DNA of 64,000 nt from the NCBI GenBank assembly GCA_004551905.1, contig SFPL01000092.1, positions 1,371-65,370 of the forward strand. Direction: 5' to 3'. The notes below the pieces were generated by a model. The model worked only from the letters and a program-made list of their open reading frames with translations, was not told where the DNA came from and did no database searches. The position numbers and the translations under genes were made by a program. This DNA comes from Lentisphaeraceae bacterium (GTDB lineage: Bacteria > Verrucomicrobiota > Kiritimatiellia > RFP12 > UBA1067). Positions 10,438-42,458 of this stretch are shown piece by piece (positions within the stretch are counted from its first letter, which is position 1; each line of letters opens with the position of its first letter).

Positions 10438-10472
10438 ACCAGACAACTACACCTCACAAGGAGAAACGAGTG

Positions 10473-11054
10473 ATGAAGAAACTGCTTTCGTTCATGTTCG
10501 CCGCCGCGGTCGCGGCCGCCGCCTATGCCGACGACGACTCCGCCGCGGCCGAGATGGCCAAGAACGTCGCGGCGCGTTCCCAGGCCGAGGAGCAGCGCTA
10601 CGACAGCCCCACCTGGCCGGCGTTCCTCGCCGTCTGGCAGGTCCCGCACGCGCTCGACGTGGTCGGCCTTCGCATCACCATCCCTTACTCCACCGCGCAG
10701 GAGAACGTCACCGGCTTCGACCTCGGCCTCTGGGGCCGCTGCCTCTACTTCGAGGGCGTGCAGGTGAACCTGCTCCGCTGCGACGTCGTGGACGACGGCG
10801 CGGGCGCCCAGGTGGGCATCTACAACTCGATCGGCCACGGCGACATGCTCGGGGTGCAGGTCGGCCTCTGGAACGAGGCGCTCTGCCTGCGCGGCGTTCA
10901 GGCCGGCCTCATCAACGTCGCCGGCGATGCGGAAGGCTTCCAGGTCGGCATCGTCAACCGCGCGGAGTCGCTCCACGGCTACCAGCTCGGCCTCGTCAAC
11001 GTGATCCGCTCCGCCGAGTTCCAGTTCTTCCCGATAATCAACATCGGCTTCTGA
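10473..11054 (+). CDS. Secreted GxQxGxxN-repeat protein with C-terminal FFPIINIGF (paralog of 35681-36217)
   Basis: Signal peptide MKKLLSFMFAAAVAAAAYA. Repeated GVQVNLL, GAQVGIYN, GVQVGLWN, GVQAGLIN, GFQVGIVN, GYQLGLVN units. Terminal aromatic residue. aaggaga SD. Confidence 0.6.
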   Translation: MKKLLSFMFAAAVAAAAYADDDSAAAEMAKNVAARSQAEEQRYDSPTWPAFLAVWQVPHALDVVGLRITIPYSTAQENVTGFDLGLWGRCLYFEGVQVNLLRCDVVDDGAGAQVGIYNSIGHGDMLGVQVGLWNEALCLRGVQAGLINVAGDAEGFQVGIVNRAESLHGYQLGLVNVIRSAEFQFFPIINIGF

Positions 11055-35198: not shown

Positions 35199-35227
35199 TT
35201 GCACGGGTAGCCGGGATATGCTATAAT
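35199..35227 (+). promoter_or_regulatory. Sigma70-type promoter of the lipoprotein operon (-35 TTGCAC, 17-nt spacer, TGCTATAAT)
   Basis: Read directly. A 56-nt leader with aaaggagg SD precedes ATG 35284. Confidence 0.6.
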
Positions 35228-35283
35228 ACCTTTCCACAAGGCCAGTGCAATGTGCCTGGCGAAAATCCATCAAAGGAGGCTGA

Positions 35284-35664
35284 ATGAAGTCAGTGATAAT
35301 GTGCGGCGCTGTTCTCGGGGCGCTGCTGTTCGCCGGATGCAAGGCTACCAACGTTCCGCCGCCTGATCGTCGCGTGACAATCGCGCCGGATCTAGGCACC
35401 AGCATCTACGTGACCGACGTCCGTTGCGTGAAGGGCTCTTCCGACTGCTACACCTTCCAGGCGAACGTGGTGAACAACACCTCGTCCCAGCGCGCGGTGG
35501 AGTGGAAGGTAGTCTGGCTCGACGCCGACGGCATGGAGATTGACTCGACCGTCTCTTCCTGGGCGGCGCGCATGATCCAGCCCTACGAAGTCTGCGCCCT
35601 GAAAGGGACGGCGCCGACCAAGGCGGCCGTCGACATGATGTTCTACGTCCGCAAGGCGAAGTAA
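35284..35664 (+). CDS. YcfL-like (DUF1425) lipoprotein
   Basis: Lipobox LLFAGC. 126 aa. VEWKVVWLDADGMEI...AVDMMFYVRK parallels the E. coli YcfL pattern (YRFYWYDARGLEM...VRLYLYL). Confidence 0.65.
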   Translation: MKSVIMCGAVLGALLFAGCKATNVPPPDRRVTIAPDLGTSIYVTDVRCVKGSSDCYTFQANVVNNTSSQRAVEWKVVWLDADGMEIDSTVSSWAARMIQPYEVCALKGTAPTKAAVDMMFYVRKAK

Positions 35665-35680
35665 CCGAAAGGATCCGAGA

Positions 35681-36217
35681 ATGAACTTCCGCAACATGAT
35701 TCTGGCGCTCTCGGCCATGACTGCTTCCGTCGGCATTGCCGCCGGCTTCGAGGCCGGCAAGGGTGTTGCCAACGACCTCGCCACCGGCGCTAACCAGCGC
35801 GACGTCACTTTCGTCGAGCGCGGCGGCAACAACTCCTACGGCTGGCAGTCCTACGACATCGTGCTCGGGGTGACGGTGCTGCCGTGGTCGATTCCCAACG
35901 AAGAAAGCAGCGTCTACGGACTGAGGCTCAACCTCGGCTGGGGCGCGTATGTTGACACCTACGGCCTCGATGCGGGACTCTTCTCGAACTGCTCGCGCGA
36001 TTTCGGCGGCATCGCGGCGAACTTCTGCGGCAACCTCGTCGGCGGAACCATGGGCGGCATCCAGGTCGGTGCGGTCAATGTGGTCCACGGACCGGCCTAC
36101 GGCCTGCAGATAGCGTTCGTCAATTTCGCGGAGGACCTGCACGGCGTGCAGATCGGCGCACTCAACTTCAACAACTCGGGGCTCAGGTGCTTCCCGATCA
36201 TCAACATAGGATTCTAA
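35681..36217 (+). CDS. Secreted GxQxGxxN-repeat protein ending CFPIINIGF (paralog of 10473-11054)
   Basis: Signal peptide. GIQVGAVN, GLQIAFVN, GVQIGALN repeats. C-terminal nonamer nearly identical to the paralog. Confidence 0.6.
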   Translation: MNFRNMILALSAMTASVGIAAGFEAGKGVANDLATGANQRDVTFVERGGNNSYGWQSYDIVLGVTVLPWSIPNEESSVYGLRLNLGWGAYVDTYGLDAGLFSNCSRDFGGIAANFCGNLVGGTMGGIQVGAVNVVHGPAYGLQIAFVNFAEDLHGVQIGALNFNNSGLRCFPIINIGF

Positions 36218-36233
36218 GAAAGGACAAGGGAAA

Positions 36234-36797
36234 ATGAACAAGCTCGTATATGGATTTGCTGTCGCCGCCGCGCTCGCCGCTGCCGGCTGCGCAACTGAGC
36301 AGACCCGCCGCATCGCCCGCGGCGAGGATACCGAGGTGACCTCCGGCTTCGCTGAGGCCGACCTCAACATCGTGGTCAGCGAGGCCGTGCAGGGCATCAA
36401 CAAGGCATCGGCCAGGTATGCCAAGGACGATGCGCGCCGCGTCGTCAACGTAAAGCCGTTCACCGTCGACACCACCGCCCGCGGCGCGCAGGCGAGCTAT
36501 CTCGCCGATTCGCTCAAGACCATGTTCGAGGAGGCACTGATGGGCTGGGACGGCGAGGGCGGCAAATTCGTAGTCTACAACGAGAACTTCGCCGCGCAGA
36601 CCGGCCGGGCGACGGTGCAGCCGGAATTCATCCTCACCGGCAAGCTGAGCGAGCAGAACGTCCGCCGCGACAACGGCAACTTCTACAAGGAGAACTCGCT
36701 GATGCTCAGGCTCACTGACGTCGCCACCGGTCTTGACTTCTGGCAGAAGCGCGTGCCGCTCCAGAAGGCGGTCGACAAGAAGAACGTGATGAACTGA
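36234..36797 (+). CDS. LpoB-like (COG3417-type) lipoprotein
   Basis: Lipobox LAAAGC. Pattern VVNVKPFTVDTT...KFVVYNE...FILTGKLSE...YKENSLMLRLTDVATGLDFWQK matches the LpoB/FlgO-like fold signature. Confidence 0.6.
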   Translation: MNKLVYGFAVAAALAAAGCATEQTRRIARGEDTEVTSGFAEADLNIVVSEAVQGINKASARYAKDDARRVVNVKPFTVDTTARGAQASYLADSLKTMFEEALMGWDGEGGKFVVYNENFAAQTGRATVQPEFILTGKLSEQNVRRDNGNFYKENSLMLRLTDVATGLDFWQKRVPLQKAVDKKNVMN

Positions 36798-36832
36798 AAT
36801 AGCGGCAAATTCCGCAGGAAAGGAGACCAGCA

Positions 36833-37909
36833 ATGAAGGCTATGCGGAAAATGACGACGCTCGCGCTTGCATGCGCGGCAGCTGTCTGTTCGTTCGGCGC
36901 CGAAGGTCTGACCGAGGCGCAGGAGGCCGTCGCAAAAGCTGGCCCCAAGAAGCTCCGGCTCATGGTCGCGGGTTTTGGCACGATCGAGTCCATGGTCCAG
37001 GTGGACAAGTGGCTTGGCGAGCAGATGCCGGAGCAGAACAACAGCGCGACTCCGCCGACGCTGAGCCAGGCCGACAAGATCAAGGACCCGGCCCTCGACC
37101 GCGAAGTCGTGCGGTTCAACTGGCATTCGCGCAAGATGGAGTACATCCGCGAGACGGACATGGTGCAGCAGGAGAACCTCCGCAACAAGCGGCTTCTCAA
37201 CGAACTGCGCATGAAGGTCCTGACCGACGCGTCGCAGCGCTACGTTCCGCTGGCCAAGGACTATCTCCAGGCTGCGCTTTCCGAGAAAGGCTCGCTCATA
37301 CAGGTCATCGACCGCTCCAATGCCGACATGAACATGGTTGAGCAGGGGCTGAACGGAGACAACTCGTCGGCTCTTGCCGGTGCGACCTGCATACTCACCG
37401 CCGCGATGGGCGACCGCGAGGAGGAGTCTCGCACGATAACCGTCAATGGAAAGGGAACGAAGGTCAAGACGACCACGTACACCCAGCCGTACGTCGGCAA
37501 GGTGCGCGACCTTCAGGGGAATGTGCTTTTCGCGTTCAAGGGCACGAGCGAATGGAGCACGAAGGTGAACAACATCGTCAAGAGTGAGCTGTCCGACCCG
37601 TCGCGCAAGCTGATCGAGAGCGCGTGCGAGCAGATTGCCGACAAGGTGCTGGGCTTCTTCACGTGCAAGCTGTCGTTCAAGATCAAGACCCCGAAGGGAA
37701 TTGACGCCGACGACGCGACCGTCAAGATAGACGGCAAGACGGTCGACAGCGACGACTCTGTGCGCGTCCTGAAGATCGAACACGCGCTTGTCGCGACACT
37801 TGACGGCTGCAAGCCTGTGCGCAAGGTCATAGAAATGGACGAAGCCGACGGCGACAAGACGATCAAGATCGTCTTCAAGAAGCCTGCCGCAGACGGGGAG
37901 GACGACTGA
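36833..37909 (+). CDS. Secreted/lipoprotein with LpoB/CsgG-like domain and C-terminal PEGA-like domain
   Basis: Signal peptide. KLRLMVAGFG..., LIQVIDRSN..., CILTAAMGD... and a KIKTPKGIDADDATVKIDGKTV tail. aaaggag SD. Confidence 0.45.
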   Translation: MKAMRKMTTLALACAAAVCSFGAEGLTEAQEAVAKAGPKKLRLMVAGFGTIESMVQVDKWLGEQMPEQNNSATPPTLSQADKIKDPALDREVVRFNWHSRKMEYIRETDMVQQENLRNKRLLNELRMKVLTDASQRYVPLAKDYLQAALSEKGSLIQVIDRSNADMNMVEQGLNGDNSSALAGATCILTAAMGDREEESRTITVNGKGTKVKTTTYTQPYVGKVRDLQGNVLFAFKGTSEWSTKVNNIVKSELSDPSRKLIESACEQIADKVLGFFTCKLSFKIKTPKGIDADDATVKIDGKTVDSDDSVRVLKIEHALVATLDGCKPVRKVIEMDEADGDKTIKIVFKKPAADGEDD

Positions 37910-39372
37910 TGAAGCGCCTTCTCGTCTCCGCGGTCGCCGCGGCGTTCGCCGTTTCCCTCTCGGCGGCTCCTAAGACGCCGAAGTGGCTTGTCCTAGACAA
38001 GATGACGTATCAGTCCGGCGTCGACCGCGTGGCCTTCGAGGGCATAGACAAGCTGCTTCTCACCAGGCTAGTGCAGGCCAAGAAGTACAAGTGCCTCGAC
38101 CGCGACATGTACGACACGGCCGCGAGGGAGGAGGGCTTCGGCGGCAAGGCCGACCTCATCCCGGCCGGCTACGCCATGAGCGGCGAAATCGTTCAGCTCC
38201 TCAAGAGCGGCAAGTCGCGCTCGATCGCCGGAACGGCCAAGTCGGAGTACATCGCAACGGTGTCGATCCGCGCGAACGACCTCAGGACGCAGCAGGCATA
38301 CGAGGCGGAGACGCTGCGCGTCGCCGCCTACTGCCAGACGCCGAAGGACATGCTCGTCCACGTCGTCAAGCGAACGGCCCTCGCGATCCTCATGCGCGAC
38401 TACCCAATGTATGTCATGGACGTTGACGAGGACGACGGCGAGCTGACCCTCAGCTACGGAGCCGACTTCCTTGAGCCCGGCGAGCAGTACGAGGTGCGCC
38501 GCCGCAAGGCGATCGTCGACGACGACACTGGCGAGGAGGTCTACAAGGAGAAGACCGTCGGCGTGTGCGAGGTGACCGACGTCGGCAAGAATACTTCTGC
38601 TGCGAAACTCATTTCCGGCAAGGCGAAGCTGAAGGACGTGCTGCGCTTCTACGAGAGTGACGAAGGCGCGGCGCCGCCAGTCCCCGCGGCGTCTGTGCAG
38701 GAAGTGTCGGCGAGGCCATTTCCCCCGGCCAAGAAGCCGCGCATCGCCGTCGCGCCGTTCATCACCAAGTCGAAGACCGTCACGGTCTGGGGCAACTCCC
38801 TTGAGGCCCGCAGCTGGCTTGACACGCTGATAGACCACCTGAGCATCCAGCTCACGAACACTGGGAGTTTTAGAACGCTCGACCGCTCGTTCGGCCCAGA
38901 AATCGACCGTGAGCTTGACCGCATCGTGAACGACCCCAACGCAAACCCCAACGATGTCTGCCGGCTCTCGAAGAAGCTGGCGACCGACTATCTCGTCGTC
39001 GCCGAGGTGATGTTTTCCGACGTCGCCTCGCCCGGCAAGGACTATGTTACGGGACTTCCACTGCCGCCGCCGTCGGCGCAGTTCGCCGAGGTGCGGTTCC
39101 GTTGCGTGCATGCGCCGACCACCGAGATCGTGATCTCCGACATCGTCCGCGTCGATTCGCAAAATTTTTATGGCACCCCGGAGGTGTTCATGTCCGGGTC
39201 GTCGGAGTGGTCTGCCGCGAATGTCGCGGCAATTATCCAGTCGCGGCTCGACCCCACAGGTTTTGCCCGTCGCCAGGCCGAGCTGAAGGCAGCCGCCGAG
39301 GCTGCTGCCGCCGCGGCCGCGCAGCAGCCGGCTCCCGCGCCGAAGCCGCAGGGCGTCAAGCTGGGGTTCTGA
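37909..39372 (+). CDS. Secreted protein with two tandem CsgG/LpoB-like domains
   Basis: Signal peptide. Second half PRIAVAPFITKS...LSIQLTNTGSFRTLDRSF...DYLVVAEV and first half LLTRLVQAKKYKCLDRDM...GYAMSGEI. TGATG overlap with the upstream gene. Confidence 0.5.
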   Translation: MKRLLVSAVAAAFAVSLSAAPKTPKWLVLDKMTYQSGVDRVAFEGIDKLLLTRLVQAKKYKCLDRDMYDTAAREEGFGGKADLIPAGYAMSGEIVQLLKSGKSRSIAGTAKSEYIATVSIRANDLRTQQAYEAETLRVAAYCQTPKDMLVHVVKRTALAILMRDYPMYVMDVDEDDGELTLSYGADFLEPGEQYEVRRRKAIVDDDTGEEVYKEKTVGVCEVTDVGKNTSAAKLISGKAKLKDVLRFYESDEGAAPPVPAASVQEVSARPFPPAKKPRIAVAPFITKSKTVTVWGNSLEARSWLDTLIDHLSIQLTNTGSFRTLDRSFGPEIDRELDRIVNDPNANPNDVCRLSKKLATDYLVVAEVMFSDVASPGKDYVTGLPLPPPSAQFAEVRFRCVHAPTTEIVISDIVRVDSQNFYGTPEVFMSGSSEWSAANVAAIIQSRLDPTGFARRQAELKAAAEAAAAAAAQQPAPAPKPQGVKLGF

Positions 39373-39373
39373 G

Positions 39374-40840
39374 ATGAGATCCGCCGCCTGCTCGGTTCGC
39401 GTGTCTGTCTTCGCTGCGATTGCCGCGGCGTCGCTTTCGCTTGTCGGCTGTCGCACGGTGGACGACGTCATCGTCGACTACCGCGCGAACATCTCCGCCG
39501 GACGCTACGCCGAAGCCGCCAGAGAGCCGGCCGAACTTGCCGCGGAGGGAGGCGGCGACGCGCTCATGTGGCGGCTCATGTCCGCCTCGGCCTACGACCT
39601 CGCGGGCGACACCGACGCCGCGATCGCGGCGTACGATCTCGCCGAGGACCGGATGATCGAGAACGACCACACCTCGGTCTTCTCGCAGACCGCCGACGCC
39701 GCCTACGCAATGATGCTCAACGACAAGTTCTTTCCCTACGACGGCGGCGGGCAAGACCGCATCTTCACCTGTCTTTACAAGGCGGTCGGCTACGGCTCCA
39801 GGAACGACTTCGCCGCCGCCCGCACGGAACTCAACCGCGCGGCGCAGCACCAGGAGAACTGGCTCTGGGAGCGTCGCAAGGACCTCGCCGCCGCCGAGAA
39901 GCGGCTCGATCAGGAGTCCGCCCAGTACGCCCGTGACAAGGGGGAAGGGCAAAACGTGGACGTCGGACAGGGCCCTGTGGCGGTGCAGAATGCGATGAAG
40001 GACGGCTCCTTCCGCACAACCGTCAAGGAGGCATTCGGATTCGACATCTTCACCTCCGGCGTGCTCGACCAGTTGAAGCCTGCAGACTACCAGAATCCGT
40101 ATGTCGCCCACGTATGCGGAGTCTTCCGCTGGCTGAGCGGCGACGACGGCCGAGGATTCCTCAAGGACGCCGCCGCGCTTCGTCCCGCCAACGGCTTTGC
40201 CCGCGGCGACCTCGACGCATGCGACGCCGGGGTGAAGCCACAGGACTGGGTGTGGGTCTATGTCGAAGACGGACTCTGCCCAGAGCGAGAGCAGTGGCGC
40301 ATCGACCTGCCGCTACTGCTTATTCCCTACGCCGGCAGATACGTGAAATACGCCGGCCTCTGCCTTCCGAGGCTCCTTGAGCGTCCGTACGCGGCGGCGT
40401 CATGGTCGATAGGCGGCGTGCCGATGGAGGTGATCGCCGATGTCGACGCGCTTGCCAAGATCGAGTACGACGTCTACATGCGCGGGGCGATTGCGCGTGA
40501 GATCACACGCACGGTCATCGACGTCGGCCTCCAGGTCGCCCTCGGTGTCACCGCCGAGCATACCAGCGACAGCACCACTCGTATCGCGCTAATGGCCTCG
40601 CAGTATTCCGTCGCCGCCTACAGCGCTCTCCGCCGCGGTGCCGACATCCGCTGCTGGACGTCCCTGCCGAAGAGCGTCTACCTCCTGCGTATGCAGCGTC
40701 CTGCCGACGGCATCCTCAGCGTCAACGCCGACGGAGTGGACGTCGTCCACACCGAGCTGCCGCCCGGCAACTCGATGGTATTCGTCCGCAAGCCGTCCGC
40801 CGCTGCGGTTCCGTCGGTCAAGGTCATAACCTGGCCGTAG
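39374..40840 (+). CDS. Large lipoprotein (helical/TPR-like N-terminal part; possibly COG3014-type)
   Basis: Lipobox LSLVGC. 488 aa. Starts 1 nt after the upstream stop. Confidence 0.45.
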   Translation: MRSAACSVRVSVFAAIAAASLSLVGCRTVDDVIVDYRANISAGRYAEAAREPAELAAEGGGDALMWRLMSASAYDLAGDTDAAIAAYDLAEDRMIENDHTSVFSQTADAAYAMMLNDKFFPYDGGGQDRIFTCLYKAVGYGSRNDFAAARTELNRAAQHQENWLWERRKDLAAAEKRLDQESAQYARDKGEGQNVDVGQGPVAVQNAMKDGSFRTTVKEAFGFDIFTSGVLDQLKPADYQNPYVAHVCGVFRWLSGDDGRGFLKDAAALRPANGFARGDLDACDAGVKPQDWVWVYVEDGLCPEREQWRIDLPLLLIPYAGRYVKYAGLCLPRLLERPYAAASWSIGGVPMEVIADVDALAKIEYDVYMRGAIAREITRTVIDVGLQVALGVTAEHTSDSTTRIALMASQYSVAAYSALRRGADIRCWTSLPKSVYLLRMQRPADGILSVNADGVDVVHTELPPGNSMVFVRKPSAAAVPSVKVITWP

Positions 40841-40893
40841 CCTTGACGCACAGTCCAAGGTAACCTCTAGCCGTAAATCACGAACCTTGCCGG

Positions 40894-40922
40894 TTGATTT
40901 GCGGCGGCAAATAGTGTATAAT
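40894..40922 (+). promoter_or_regulatory. Sigma70-type promoter of guaB (-35 TTGATT, 17-nt spacer, -10 TATAAT)
   Basis: Read directly. The 39-nt leader contains a GGGCGC-GGA-GCGCCC hairpin abutting the SD. Confidence 0.6.
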
Positions 40923-40961
40923 CCACTTCTAAAAAGGGCGCGGAGCGCCCGGAGGAGTGGT

Positions 40962-42458
40962 ATGAACAGACATATGGACGCTTTCATGAAGACGTTTCCC
41001 CACGAGGGGCTGACGTACGACGATGTTACGCTCGTCACGCAGTATGCGGATTTCCTGCCTGACGAGACCTCGCTCGAGACCAAGTTGACCTCGCGCACGA
41101 AGATGAAGACGCCATTCATCTCCGCCGCGATGGACACCGTCACCGAGGCGCCGATGGCGATCGCGATGGCGCTGTCCGGCGGCATCGGCTGCATCCACAA
41201 GAACCTGGAGGAGGACGACCAGGCGGCGCAGGTGGCTAAGGTGAAGAACCACCTCAACGGGCTCATCGCCAAGCCGATCTGCTTCCACGCCGACGACGAC
41301 ATCTCCTTCCTGCGCGCGGAGAAGCGCCGCATGGGGCTGAAGTTCAACGGCTTCCCGGTGCTGGACTCGGACGACAAGCTCGTCGGCATGATCACCTCGT
41401 CCGACATGCGCTTCGCGCCGATGAACGCGATGACGCTCAAGGACGTGATGCAGCCCTGCCCGATCACCGGCACCCGTTCCACCACGCTGAAGAAGGCGTA
41501 TGAGCTCATGCGCAAGGCGAAGATCGGCAAGCTGCCGCTCGTCGACCGCAACGGCCGCGTCATCGGCCTATACAGCTTCACCGACGTCGCGCGCATCATC
41601 GAGAACTCCAACGCCGGCTACAACTGCGACGAGCGCTTCCGCCTGCGCGTCGCGGCGTCCGTCTCCGGCGGCCGCGGCGACCTGAGGCGGATGGAGAAGC
41701 TTGCCGCCGCCGGCGTCGACTGCGTCGTCGTCGACTCCGCCCACGGCCACTCCAAGGGCATCATGGAGATGACGAAGTACATCGCAAAGACCTATCCGCA
41801 GATCGATGTCATCGCCGGCAACATCGCGACCAGCGAGGCCGCCGCGGCGCTCGCGAAGTGCGGCGCCCATGCGGTCAAGGTGGGCATCGGCCCCGGCTCG
41901 ATCTGCACTACCCGCGTCGTCTGCGGCGTCGGCATCCCCCAGCTCACGGCGGTCTACAACGCGGCTAAGGCACTGCGCGGGACCGGCGTCGCCGTCATCG
42001 CCGACGGCGGCATCAAGCTCTCCGGCGACGTCCCCAAGGCGATCGCCGCCGGCGCCGACACGGTGATGCTCGGCTCGGTGCTCGCTGGGACCGAGGAAAG
42101 CCCGGGCGAGAAGATCTACGCGAACGGCCGCCAGTACGTCGTCTACCGCGGCATGGGCTCGATGGCCGCACTCAAGAACGGCAAGGGCTCGCGGGCGCGC
42201 TACTTCCAGGACTCGGAGGCGGAGGAGGACCTGGTGCCGCAGGGCATCGAGGGAATGGTGCCATACTCCGGCAAGGTGAAGTCGATCATGACCCAGTTCT
42301 GCGGCGGCCTCAGGGCATCGCTCGGCTACTGCGGAGCGAGGACGATCGCCGAGCTGAAGGAGAAGGGCATGTTCTACCGCGTCACCGCCGCTGGGCAGCG
42401 CGAGGCGCGTCCGCACGACATCACCATCACCAAGGAAGCCCCGAACTACCGTGCGTGA
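40962..42458 (+). CDS. guaB: IMP dehydrogenase
   Basis: [13 protein letters not shown] pair and [11 protein letters not shown] catalytic loop. ggaggag SD 5 nt upstream of ATG 40962. Confidence 0.9.

Follow-up and report, generated by a model that had tools for sequence, protein, structure and literature searches.

Six open reading frames (ORFs) on the + strand at 35284-40840 of a 64,000-nucleotide (nt) stretch of Lentisphaeraceae DNA (contig SFPL01000092.1), the whole of which is called the window below, were found at the coordinates given by an earlier sequence-only reading and are numbered g1 to g6 in order. The locus is a rearranged, lineage-specific version of a widespread and already known module and not a new kind of system; the observation made in the sequence-only reading is confirmed, and its interpretation is partly supported. 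The mapped features are as follows (aa, amino acids; TPR, tetratricopeptide repeat; AF2, AlphaFold2).

35199..35227, + strand: promoter, with TTGCAC (35199-35204, -35-like), a 17-nt spacer and the extended -10 TGCTATAAT (35219-35227)
35284..35664, + strand: g1, DUF1425/YcfL-family lipoprotein, 126 aa (PF07233)
35681..36217, + strand: g2, LA_2272-repeat / VC2662-like protein, 178 aa (NF047436)
36234..36797, + strand: g3, LpoB-family lipoprotein, 187 aa (PF13036)
36833..37909, + strand: g4, lineage-specific secreted protein, 358 aa, without a family match
37909..39372, + strand: g5, FlgT-like secreted protein, 487 aa (Pfam CsgG, AF2 and Foldseek)
39374..40840, + strand: g6, hallmark TPR lipoprotein, 488 aa (AF2 model, family members)
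40870..40906, + strand: stable hairpin directly 3' of g6, without a following U-run

The six genes form one operon, in which they are tightly spaced or overlapping (gaps of 16, 16, 35, -1, and 1 nt from g1 to g6), with purine-rich Shine-Dalgarno-like sequences 5' of g1 to g5 and a GC content equal to that of the surroundings. Because each has conserved homologues in tens of genomes, they are real genes and not GC-rich chance ORFs. Signal sequences, assigned by inspection, were present in all six, as had been proposed: g1, g3, and g6 are lipoproteins with the lipoboxes LFAG↓C, AAAG↓C, and SLVG↓C, respectively, and g2, g4, and g5 carry type-I signal peptides with cleavage sites of the AXA kind that are clearer in homologues. 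The sigma70 promoter named in the sequence-only reading, TTGCAC-17-TGCTATAAT, is present, though its -35 hexamer matches only 3 of 6 positions, which is why it is absent from the list of a generic promoter scan. It is separated from g1 by a 56-nt leader containing the Shine-Dalgarno sequence AAAGGAGG, and the closest relative, locus L017 (L numbers denote loci seeded with g6, P numbers protein clusters), retains it as TTGCGT-17-TGCTATACT. The promoter belongs to the same class as the other extended -10 sites of the window; this motif, TGNTATAAT, occurs at 9 sites in the 64-kb window versus 0.09 expected, a number reached by 0/100 shuffles, and is a promoter signature of the window's organism. 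One site lies in front of g1 and none within 35228-40840.

The hallmark of the locus is g6. Its AF2 model (pLDDT 85, pTM 0.83) consists of a TPR-like helical domain (aa 29-285, nt 39458-40228) and an alpha/beta C-domain (aa 292-487, nt 40247-40834). Against PDB structures, the model gave weak TPR matches only, none at E ≤ 0.001 and NlpI among them, and the C-domain had no structural match in the PDB. Pfam TPR matches were present in members of the family, with g6 itself having no family match, and G25-C26-R27 was invariant across 48 homologues. The family comprised 340 word-index matches and 1011 clusters at 50% identity (E ≤ 1e-3), mostly full-length and with 25-30% identity, and the cluster members among the distant relatives were named only "hypothetical protein." Sequence searches of g2, g4, g5, and g6 and of the g2 and g4 family profiles against PDB chains returned nothing meaningful.

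The two small lipoproteins were assigned from family profiles. The proposed YcfL-like nature of g1 was borne out by PF07233 (DUF1425/YcfL; E = 2.1e-14, 53.6 bits versus a gathering score of 28.3, profile positions 9-96 of 96), and PDB entry 3o0l was a weak match (E = 0.018). The LpoB-like assignment of g3 held in part: PF13036 (LpoB) scored above its gathering score (E = 2.7e-6, 27.8 bits versus 22.3), but the match is partial, covering residues 117-173 and profile positions 90-144 of 147, and the 39 bits obtained with the LpoB equivalog TIGR02722 fail the cut-off of 110.55. By inspection, about 20 residues lie between the lipidated Cys19 of g3 and the first conserved block. With the CsgG match of g5 given below, the profile searches for DUF1425/YcfL, LpoB, and CsgG placed g1, g3, and g5 above the Pfam gathering scores.

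g2, described earlier as a GxQxGxxN-repeat protein ending in Phe, indeed contains about six units of 14-16 residues of the pattern G-h-Q-h-G-h-h-N and has the C terminus FPIINIGF. The repeat is present at the protein level only, and no DNA-level repeat was found in g2 by Tandem Repeats Finder. The NCBIfam model NF047436 (LA_2272_repeat) was matched at 36.3 bits (cut-off 25) by g2 and by 20/20 family members tested, and 37 of 38 members end in W or F. The matches of a word-index search with g2 were all in Kiritimatiellae. g2 is a candidate small outer-membrane beta-barrel or beta-solenoid and is probably located in the outer membrane. A second LA_2272-repeat gene at 10470-11054 (+ strand, 194 aa) was recognized with the g2 family in hmmsearch (E = 1.4e-34); it has cleaner G-x-Q-x-G-x-x-N repeats and an identical FPIINIGF C terminus, and, as a stand-alone gene, it is flanked by a cyclophilin-type isomerase ORF and a DUF1015-like ORF. 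Both g2 and this paralogue resemble Leptospira LA_2272/LA_2273 and Vibrio cholerae VC2662 in scoring above the LA_2272 repeat cut-off. Unlike the LA_2272 lipoprotein and VC2662, g2 is below both equivalog cut-offs (NF047437, VC2662 family, E = 7.6e-10, 38.5 bits versus 140; LA_2272_fam_lipo, 26.1 bits versus 30) and is not a lipoprotein, having no lipobox. VC2662 and LA_2272 are uncharacterized proteins (PMC10865864, PMC2387172, PMC5348505).

In g5, an alpha/beta domain B (aa 25-164, nt 37981-38400) and a beta domain (aa 167-247, nt 38407-38649) are followed by a disordered linker, a CsgG-like alpha/beta domain C (aa 278-447, nt 38740-39249), a helix, and an Ala/Pro-rich, low-complexity tail ending in GVKLGF (nt 39325-39369). 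This fold was mapped from an AF2 model of the fusion protein P0271, which over its g5 part shares 91% identity with g5 of the window (overall pLDDT 73, g5 domains mostly 80-90). The best Foldseek matches of the model were Vibrio FlgT of the flagellar H-ring, 8z5n ("LPHT ring," E = 4.5e-13) and 3w1e (E = 1.5e-12), over about 275 columns, followed by the TolB N-domain, HpaA, CsgG, LptE, PelC, and GNA1162 at about 1e-5 to 1e-4. g5 and FlgT are both secreted without a lipid anchor. Unlike FlgT, g5 has an extra domain set, no flagellar genes lie in or near the cassettes, Pfam FlgT scores in the family are subthreshold, and window g5 itself had no match to the Pfam FlgT models; g5 thus shares the FlgT fold yet fails the FlgT context and threshold tests. 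The likeness to CsgG comprises the alpha/beta core fold, a Foldseek match at E of about 1e-5, and a score above the gathering score of Pfam CsgG (PF03783; E = 2.6e-5, 24.1 bits versus 20.8, residues 273-368, profile positions 6-99 of 210). Unlike CsgG, g5 has a type-I site (SLSA↓AP), no Cys and no lipobox, the rest of the profile is unmatched, and no csgA, csgB, csgE, or csgF partners lie in the cassette or its flanks. The membrane hairpins of CsgG lie in the part of the profile that g5 does not match. g5 is therefore not a CsgG-type channel and is not to be filed as one, because the lipid anchor and the hairpin region both fail.

Profile comparison aligned residues 231-455 of g5 to the alpha/beta domain of the canonical g5-type protein (E = 2e-46) and residues 50-284 to its alpha/beta-plus-beta region (hhalign 93%, E = 3e-7). 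Judged from these alignments, g5 is a partial tandem duplication of the canonical 405- to 450-aa protein, and the two tandem CsgG/LpoB-like domains proposed by the sequence-only reading are therefore right, in agreement with Pfam CsgG and with AF2 and Foldseek.

g4 fared differently. It was split into an N-domain (about aa 26-273) and an all-beta-looking C-terminal segment (aa 274-358, 85 aa), and no Pfam, NCBIfam, or PDB match was found for it. Its proposed LpoB/CsgG-like character found no backing in sequence, as profile-profile comparison (hhalign) with the LpoB, CsgG, g3, g5, and DUF6844 families revealed no relation; only the predicted secondary-structure order of the N-domain may resemble an LpoB/CsgG-type fold. 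The PEGA-like domain suggested for the C terminus was rejected, with no PEGA match at E ≤ 1 in window g4 and 6 homologues. In many relatives, a single reading frame joins the g4 N-domain to the complete mature g5. The fusion proteins are 733-758 aa long in about 50 independent protein clusters (P0270-P0321) and 733-775 aa long in the loci mapped below, and the 85-aa C-terminal segment of window g4 is missing from all fusions. The fusion genes mapped in the loci are as follows.

L014: 7705-9933
L015: 6490-8736
L017: 7735-9936
L023: 7674-10001

In L010 (8545-9999), the g4 N-domain is fused to the g5 C-domain only, in a protein of 484 aa.

The cassette recurs far beyond the window. An identical locus was found on six further metagenome contigs, a genome scan seeded with g6 returned 80 loci, and components were counted by iterative searches over all ORFs of 82 non-redundant g6-seeded loci. 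These loci derive mostly from rumen and gut Kiritimatiellae and Lentisphaerae and also from Amphritea, Alcaligenaceae, Sulfurimonas, Phycisphaerae, and Omnitrophota, and the co-occurrence anticipated by the sequence-only reading is found in many genomes. The LpoB-like g3 was present in 70/82 loci, g5-type proteins in 52, the DUF1425 protein g1 in 51, g2-type proteins in 37, a DUF6844 protein in 24, and g4 in 12; g6 was alone in 10. In the window and in the 51 loci carrying it, g1 adjoins g3 or sits one gene away.

The commonest gene order was g1-g3-DUF6844-g5-type-g2-g6 (9 loci). The order g1-g3-g4-g5-g2-g6 was found in 5 loci, and in L007 with a second g2 gene downstream, and that of the window in 1 other species and, with the g4-g5 fusion, in 5. 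The order g6-g1-g3-DUF6844-g5-type is shared by Amphritea (L083), Sulfurimonas (L078), and a member of Lentisphaeria (L088), and the cross-phylum core g6-g1-g3-(DUF6844)-g5-type also occurs in Phycisphaerae (L074). In other species, the same six genes reappear next to different flanking genes, such as riboflavin and purL genes in L007 and hemB in L008, and all-against-all clustering of flanking ORFs for further conserved neighbors gave only overlapping-frame artifacts and lineage-specific flanks. The proteobacterial and Campylobacterota loci showed matches to DUF1425, LpoB, DUF6844, and CsgG, together with weak subthreshold ones to FlgT_M and FlgT_C (21.2 versus 31.2 and 20.5 versus 27 in the g5-type protein of Sulfurimonas L078). 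The Amphritea counterpart of g3 is a full-length LpoB of 148 bits that passes the equivalog cut-off of 110.55, and the Sulfurimonas g6 homologue was recovered by tblastn at E = 1e-34. Profile-profile comparison of all seven families yielded only signal-peptide matches, a weak hint between g5-type proteins and g3 (36%), and the g5 duplication.

The cross-phylum core comprises five genes, for a TPR lipoprotein, a DUF1425 protein, an LpoB-like protein, a DUF6844 protein, and an FlgT-like protein, and is not a triad. Since this core is found across Amphritea, Sulfurimonas, Phycisphaerae, and Lentisphaeria, the conserved unit is a five-gene module. The module of YcfL, LpoB, and a large lipoprotein named in the sequence-only reading fits published work (PMC3100323, PMC11394524) and the Sulfurimonas gene order, but as a triad it understated the unit. 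The window holds a derived form, in which g4 occupies the DUF6844 position of the canonical module without detectable homology, g5 is partly duplicated and g2 is added. The middle of the cassette is an exchangeable region.

Several variants were seen among the loci. Genes for g6 homologues without partner genes nearby (L041, L046, L048, and L050, with 10-kb flanks, and six others) encode solitary paralogues that resemble HP0018 of Helicobacter pylori. In a Kiritimatiellae subgroup (L033, 5190-9279; also L036, L037, L045, and L052), the g5-type gene and g2 are separated by three extra genes for secreted proteins, which have lengths of 566 aa (ending ..STDDY), 444 aa, and 351 aa. Another subgroup, g6-(g1)-g3-g3, lacks a g5-type gene and encodes a tandem pair of LpoB-like lipoproteins (Kiritimatiellaeota BRZ bins and Candidatus Spyradenecus; L062, L064, L065, L067, L069, L079, and L086, as well as L070-L072 and L081). 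In Sulfurimonas (L078, 4418-6013), the DUF6844 protein is extended at its N terminus by a GYF_2 domain (E = 1.3e-15) and also has a proline-rich stretch. The literature mentions DUF6844 only as the name of a Francisella antigen.

The closest known counterparts are the loci of Cj0089 and HP0018. In Campylobacter jejuni, cj0089 (TPR lipoprotein), cj0090, and cj0091 (LpoB-like) are co-transcribed with cj0092 downstream, and Cj0089 was found in the inner-membrane fraction and Cj0091 in the outer-membrane fraction (PMC3100323). HP0018, reported as a Cj0089 homologue, forms foci and co-precipitates AmiA and MltD, its deletion leads to chains of outer-membrane vesicles and less helical cells, and in enterohepatic Helicobacter its homologue adjoins an LpoB homologue (PMC11394524). 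As in cj0089-cj0090-cj0091 and HP0018/HP1457, where a TPR lipoprotein of about 450-490 aa is co-operonic with small lipoproteins, one of them LpoB-like, g6 has a TPR-like domain and is co-operonic with DUF1425 and LpoB-like lipoproteins, and the order in Sulfurimonas L078, g6-g1-g3-DUF6844-g5-type, matches cj0089 through cj0092. The window differs from the cj0089 operon in that its TPR gene is last, whereas cj0089 is first, and in having the orphan g4 for DUF6844, a partly duplicated FlgT-like protein and an added LA_2272-repeat gene.

In Escherichia coli, ycfL adjoins lpoB, and LpoB activates PBP1B. The window shares with E. coli the linkage of a DUF1425 lipoprotein gene to an LpoB-family lipoprotein gene; unlike E. 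coli LpoB, g3 fails the equivalog cut-off and appears to have no long linker, and E. coli is not known to have TPR lipoprotein, DUF6844, or FlgT-like partners. NlpI-Prc and LbcA-CtpA are systems in which outer-membrane TPR lipoproteins dock partners and govern cell-wall hydrolases. The NlpI/LbcA adaptors resemble g6 in the generic TPR fold only; unlike in those systems, the cassette has no protease gene and g6 has an extra 200-aa C-domain of unmatched fold.

A feature common to several components is an aromatic C terminus. Terminal Phe was found in 23/24 DUF6844 proteins, as [YD]DF after a low-complexity tail, and in 29/50 g5-type proteins, as ..PF or ..GF, and terminal Trp in 45/83 g3 proteins, as ..TW. 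g4 has no such tail and is the component repeatedly fused to g5. Peptide docking is suggested by flexible tails that close with a fixed aromatic residue, for which the TPR domain of g6 would be a plausible receptor. The YDF end of the DUF6844 protein recalls an outer-membrane protein; a beta-barrel was considered for it and rejected, as the sequence is mixed alpha/beta with a low-complexity tail.

On balance, and with moderate confidence, the locus is best explained as encoding a membrane-anchored scaffold, organized by the TPR lipoprotein, that lies beneath the outer membrane on its periplasmic face and influences cell-wall remodeling or outer-membrane attachment. As to complex formation, ring shape, tail docking, and the physiological role of the six proteins, we infer the following. 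The six exported proteins would cooperate on the inner side of the outer membrane, and the three lipoproteins would tether the assembly to the membrane. The LpoB-like domains and those of FlgT, CsgG, PelC, and LptE type may build an oligomeric and possibly ring-shaped scaffold below the outer membrane; FlgT, the TolB N-domain, CsgG, LptE, and PelC all belong to rings, plugs, or scaffolds close to the outer membrane. With its TPR domain, g6 would serve as the hub and may bind its partners through their flexible, Phe- or Trp-terminated C-terminal tails. The assembly would tune cell-wall remodeling enzymes or the way in which the outer membrane is fastened to the wall, and cells without the module would be expected to have an altered shape and a blebbing outer membrane, as reported for H. 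pylori HP0018. The fusion of the g4 N-domain with g5 into single proteins argues for a physical association of these two.

Several points weigh against such a scaffold. The proposed role leans on the Campylobacter and Helicobacter proteins, whose presumed link to g6 is drawn from the Sulfurimonas gene order and published descriptions. g3 matches just the last third of the LpoB profile, and the roughly 20 residues behind its lipidated Cys are few for a reach across the periplasm. Not all g5-type proteins end in Phe, that of Amphritea ending in ..ILRR and that of Alcaligenaceae in ..GGVIL. As g6 stands alone in 10/82 loci, it can work without partners, and the existence of a g2 paralogue together with the absence of g2 from proteobacterial versions means that g2 may be loosely attached.

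An outer-membrane export device is an unlikely alternative. Here, the CsgG/PelC/LptE-type g5, g3, and the TPR lipoprotein g6, to be likened to AlgK or the PelB TPR region, would form or gate a conduit, and g2 would be a curli-like fiber subunit or a barrel. Pfam CsgG matches in g5 and many homologues, some of which are named CsgG by their sources, and the Foldseek matches to CsgG, PelC, LptE, and GNA1162 speak for a conduit, but g5 has no lipid anchor and matches less than half of the CsgG profile, and no CsgE, CsgF, synthase, or glycosyltransferase gene lies in or near the cassette, the flanks of which vary. The G-x-Q-x-G-x-x-N repeats of g2 recall those of curli, which are Q-x-G-x-G-N. Older threading tied LA2272 to the pertactin beta-helix 1dab (PMC2387172). 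Against the role of g2 as an exported fiber, the protein is missing from the proteobacterial, Campylobacterota, and Phycisphaerae versions, a stand-alone paralogue exists, and its C terminus, where hydrophobic residues alternate before a conserved aromatic one, looks more like that of an integral outer-membrane protein than that of a secreted substrate.

Slightly less credible still is a genuine LpoB-type regulator, in which g3 would activate a class A penicillin-binding protein with the other five proteins as accessories. The PF13036 score of g3, the 148 bits of its Amphritea equivalent, the ycfL-lpoB adjacency in E. coli, and the tie of HP0018 to cell-wall enzymes (PMC11394524) are in line with this role. 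Window g3 itself reaches only 39 bits of the 110.55 required by TIGR02722, covers 55/147 Pfam positions, and, by inspection, appears to lack a long disordered stretch behind its lipidated Cys; genes for penicillin-binding proteins show no linkage to the cassette. LpoB requires the UB2H domain of PBP1B, and only some Gammaproteobacteria possess this domain, but the module is distributed over Planctomycetes-Verrucomicrobia-Chlamydiae (PVC) bacteria, Campylobacterota, and Omnitrophota.

A set of surface-exposed lipoproteins or adhesins for attachment to a host or to particles, rather than a periplasmic machine, is improbable. It draws on the Cj0091 mutant, which adheres less to INT 407 cells and colonizes chicks poorly (PMC3100323), on the NCBIfam label "surface repeat-containing" of the LA_2272 family, and on the variable middle genes of the cassette. 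Unlike adhesins, however, the core proteins show high conservation among free-living marine, sediment, and gut bacteria; their folds are of the kind seen in periplasmic scaffold proteins, and Cj0089 fractionated with the inner membrane (PMC3100323). That the six genes are mere neighbors with unrelated functions is strongly disfavored: g2 and g6 also occur alone, but the cassette recurs in differing contexts in dozens of species, with fusions and 1-nt overlaps.

Around the operon, purB-like and rluD-like genes lie upstream and guaB and a signal peptidase gene downstream. The spacer between g6 and guaB (40830-40965) has an unusually stable fold (-54 kcal/mol, z = -3.8) with two hairpins, and no U-run follows either of them; the first, at 40870..40906, may mark the end of the operon and is not a canonical intrinsic terminator. 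A promoter-like site for guaB, TTGATT-17-TATAAT at 40894-40922, overlaps its end. In the window, the sites of the extended -10 motif TG[CG]TATAAT are as follows.

8442, 13474, 17775, 21352, 23850, 28047, and 35219, + strand: extended -10 sites
63883 and 63977, - strand: extended -10 sites

All of the fully readable sites (8/8) lie at most about 60 nt upstream of a candidate start codon, and a -35 consensus is not clearly visible. The distance to an ATG downstream is just 6-9 nt at six sites, suggesting that this Kiritimatiellae bacterium produces leaderless mRNAs from many of its genes.

The g6 family is very large and nearly always linked to LpoB-like and YcfL-like lipoproteins, and the sole functional data are the adhesion and colonization defects in Campylobacter and the vesiculation and shape defects in Helicobacter. 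To these the present analysis adds four points: the five-gene unit, the FlgT-like component, the conserved C-terminal aromatic tails, and the fusions and swaps in Kiritimatiellae. The organism of the window, a gut or rumen member of Kiritimatiellae, is uncultured, so the locus serves mainly as comparative evidence; tail-to-TPR docking and the ring-like scaffold are hypotheses testable in culturable hosts. A more far-reaching and doubtful proposal is that the triad of YcfL, LpoB-like, and TPR proteins could be the visible part of a phylum-spanning envelope machine, in which FlgT-like and LpoB-like proteins would form a non-flagellar, H-ring-like scaffold below the outer membrane and the TPR lipoprotein would capture the C-terminal Phe/Trp tails of its partners, the E. 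coli ycfL-lpoB pair being a reduced remnant and PBP1B activation a late co-option. If such a machine exists, the g4 swap, the duplicated g5, and the added g2 of the window would show that its middle components are exchangeable.

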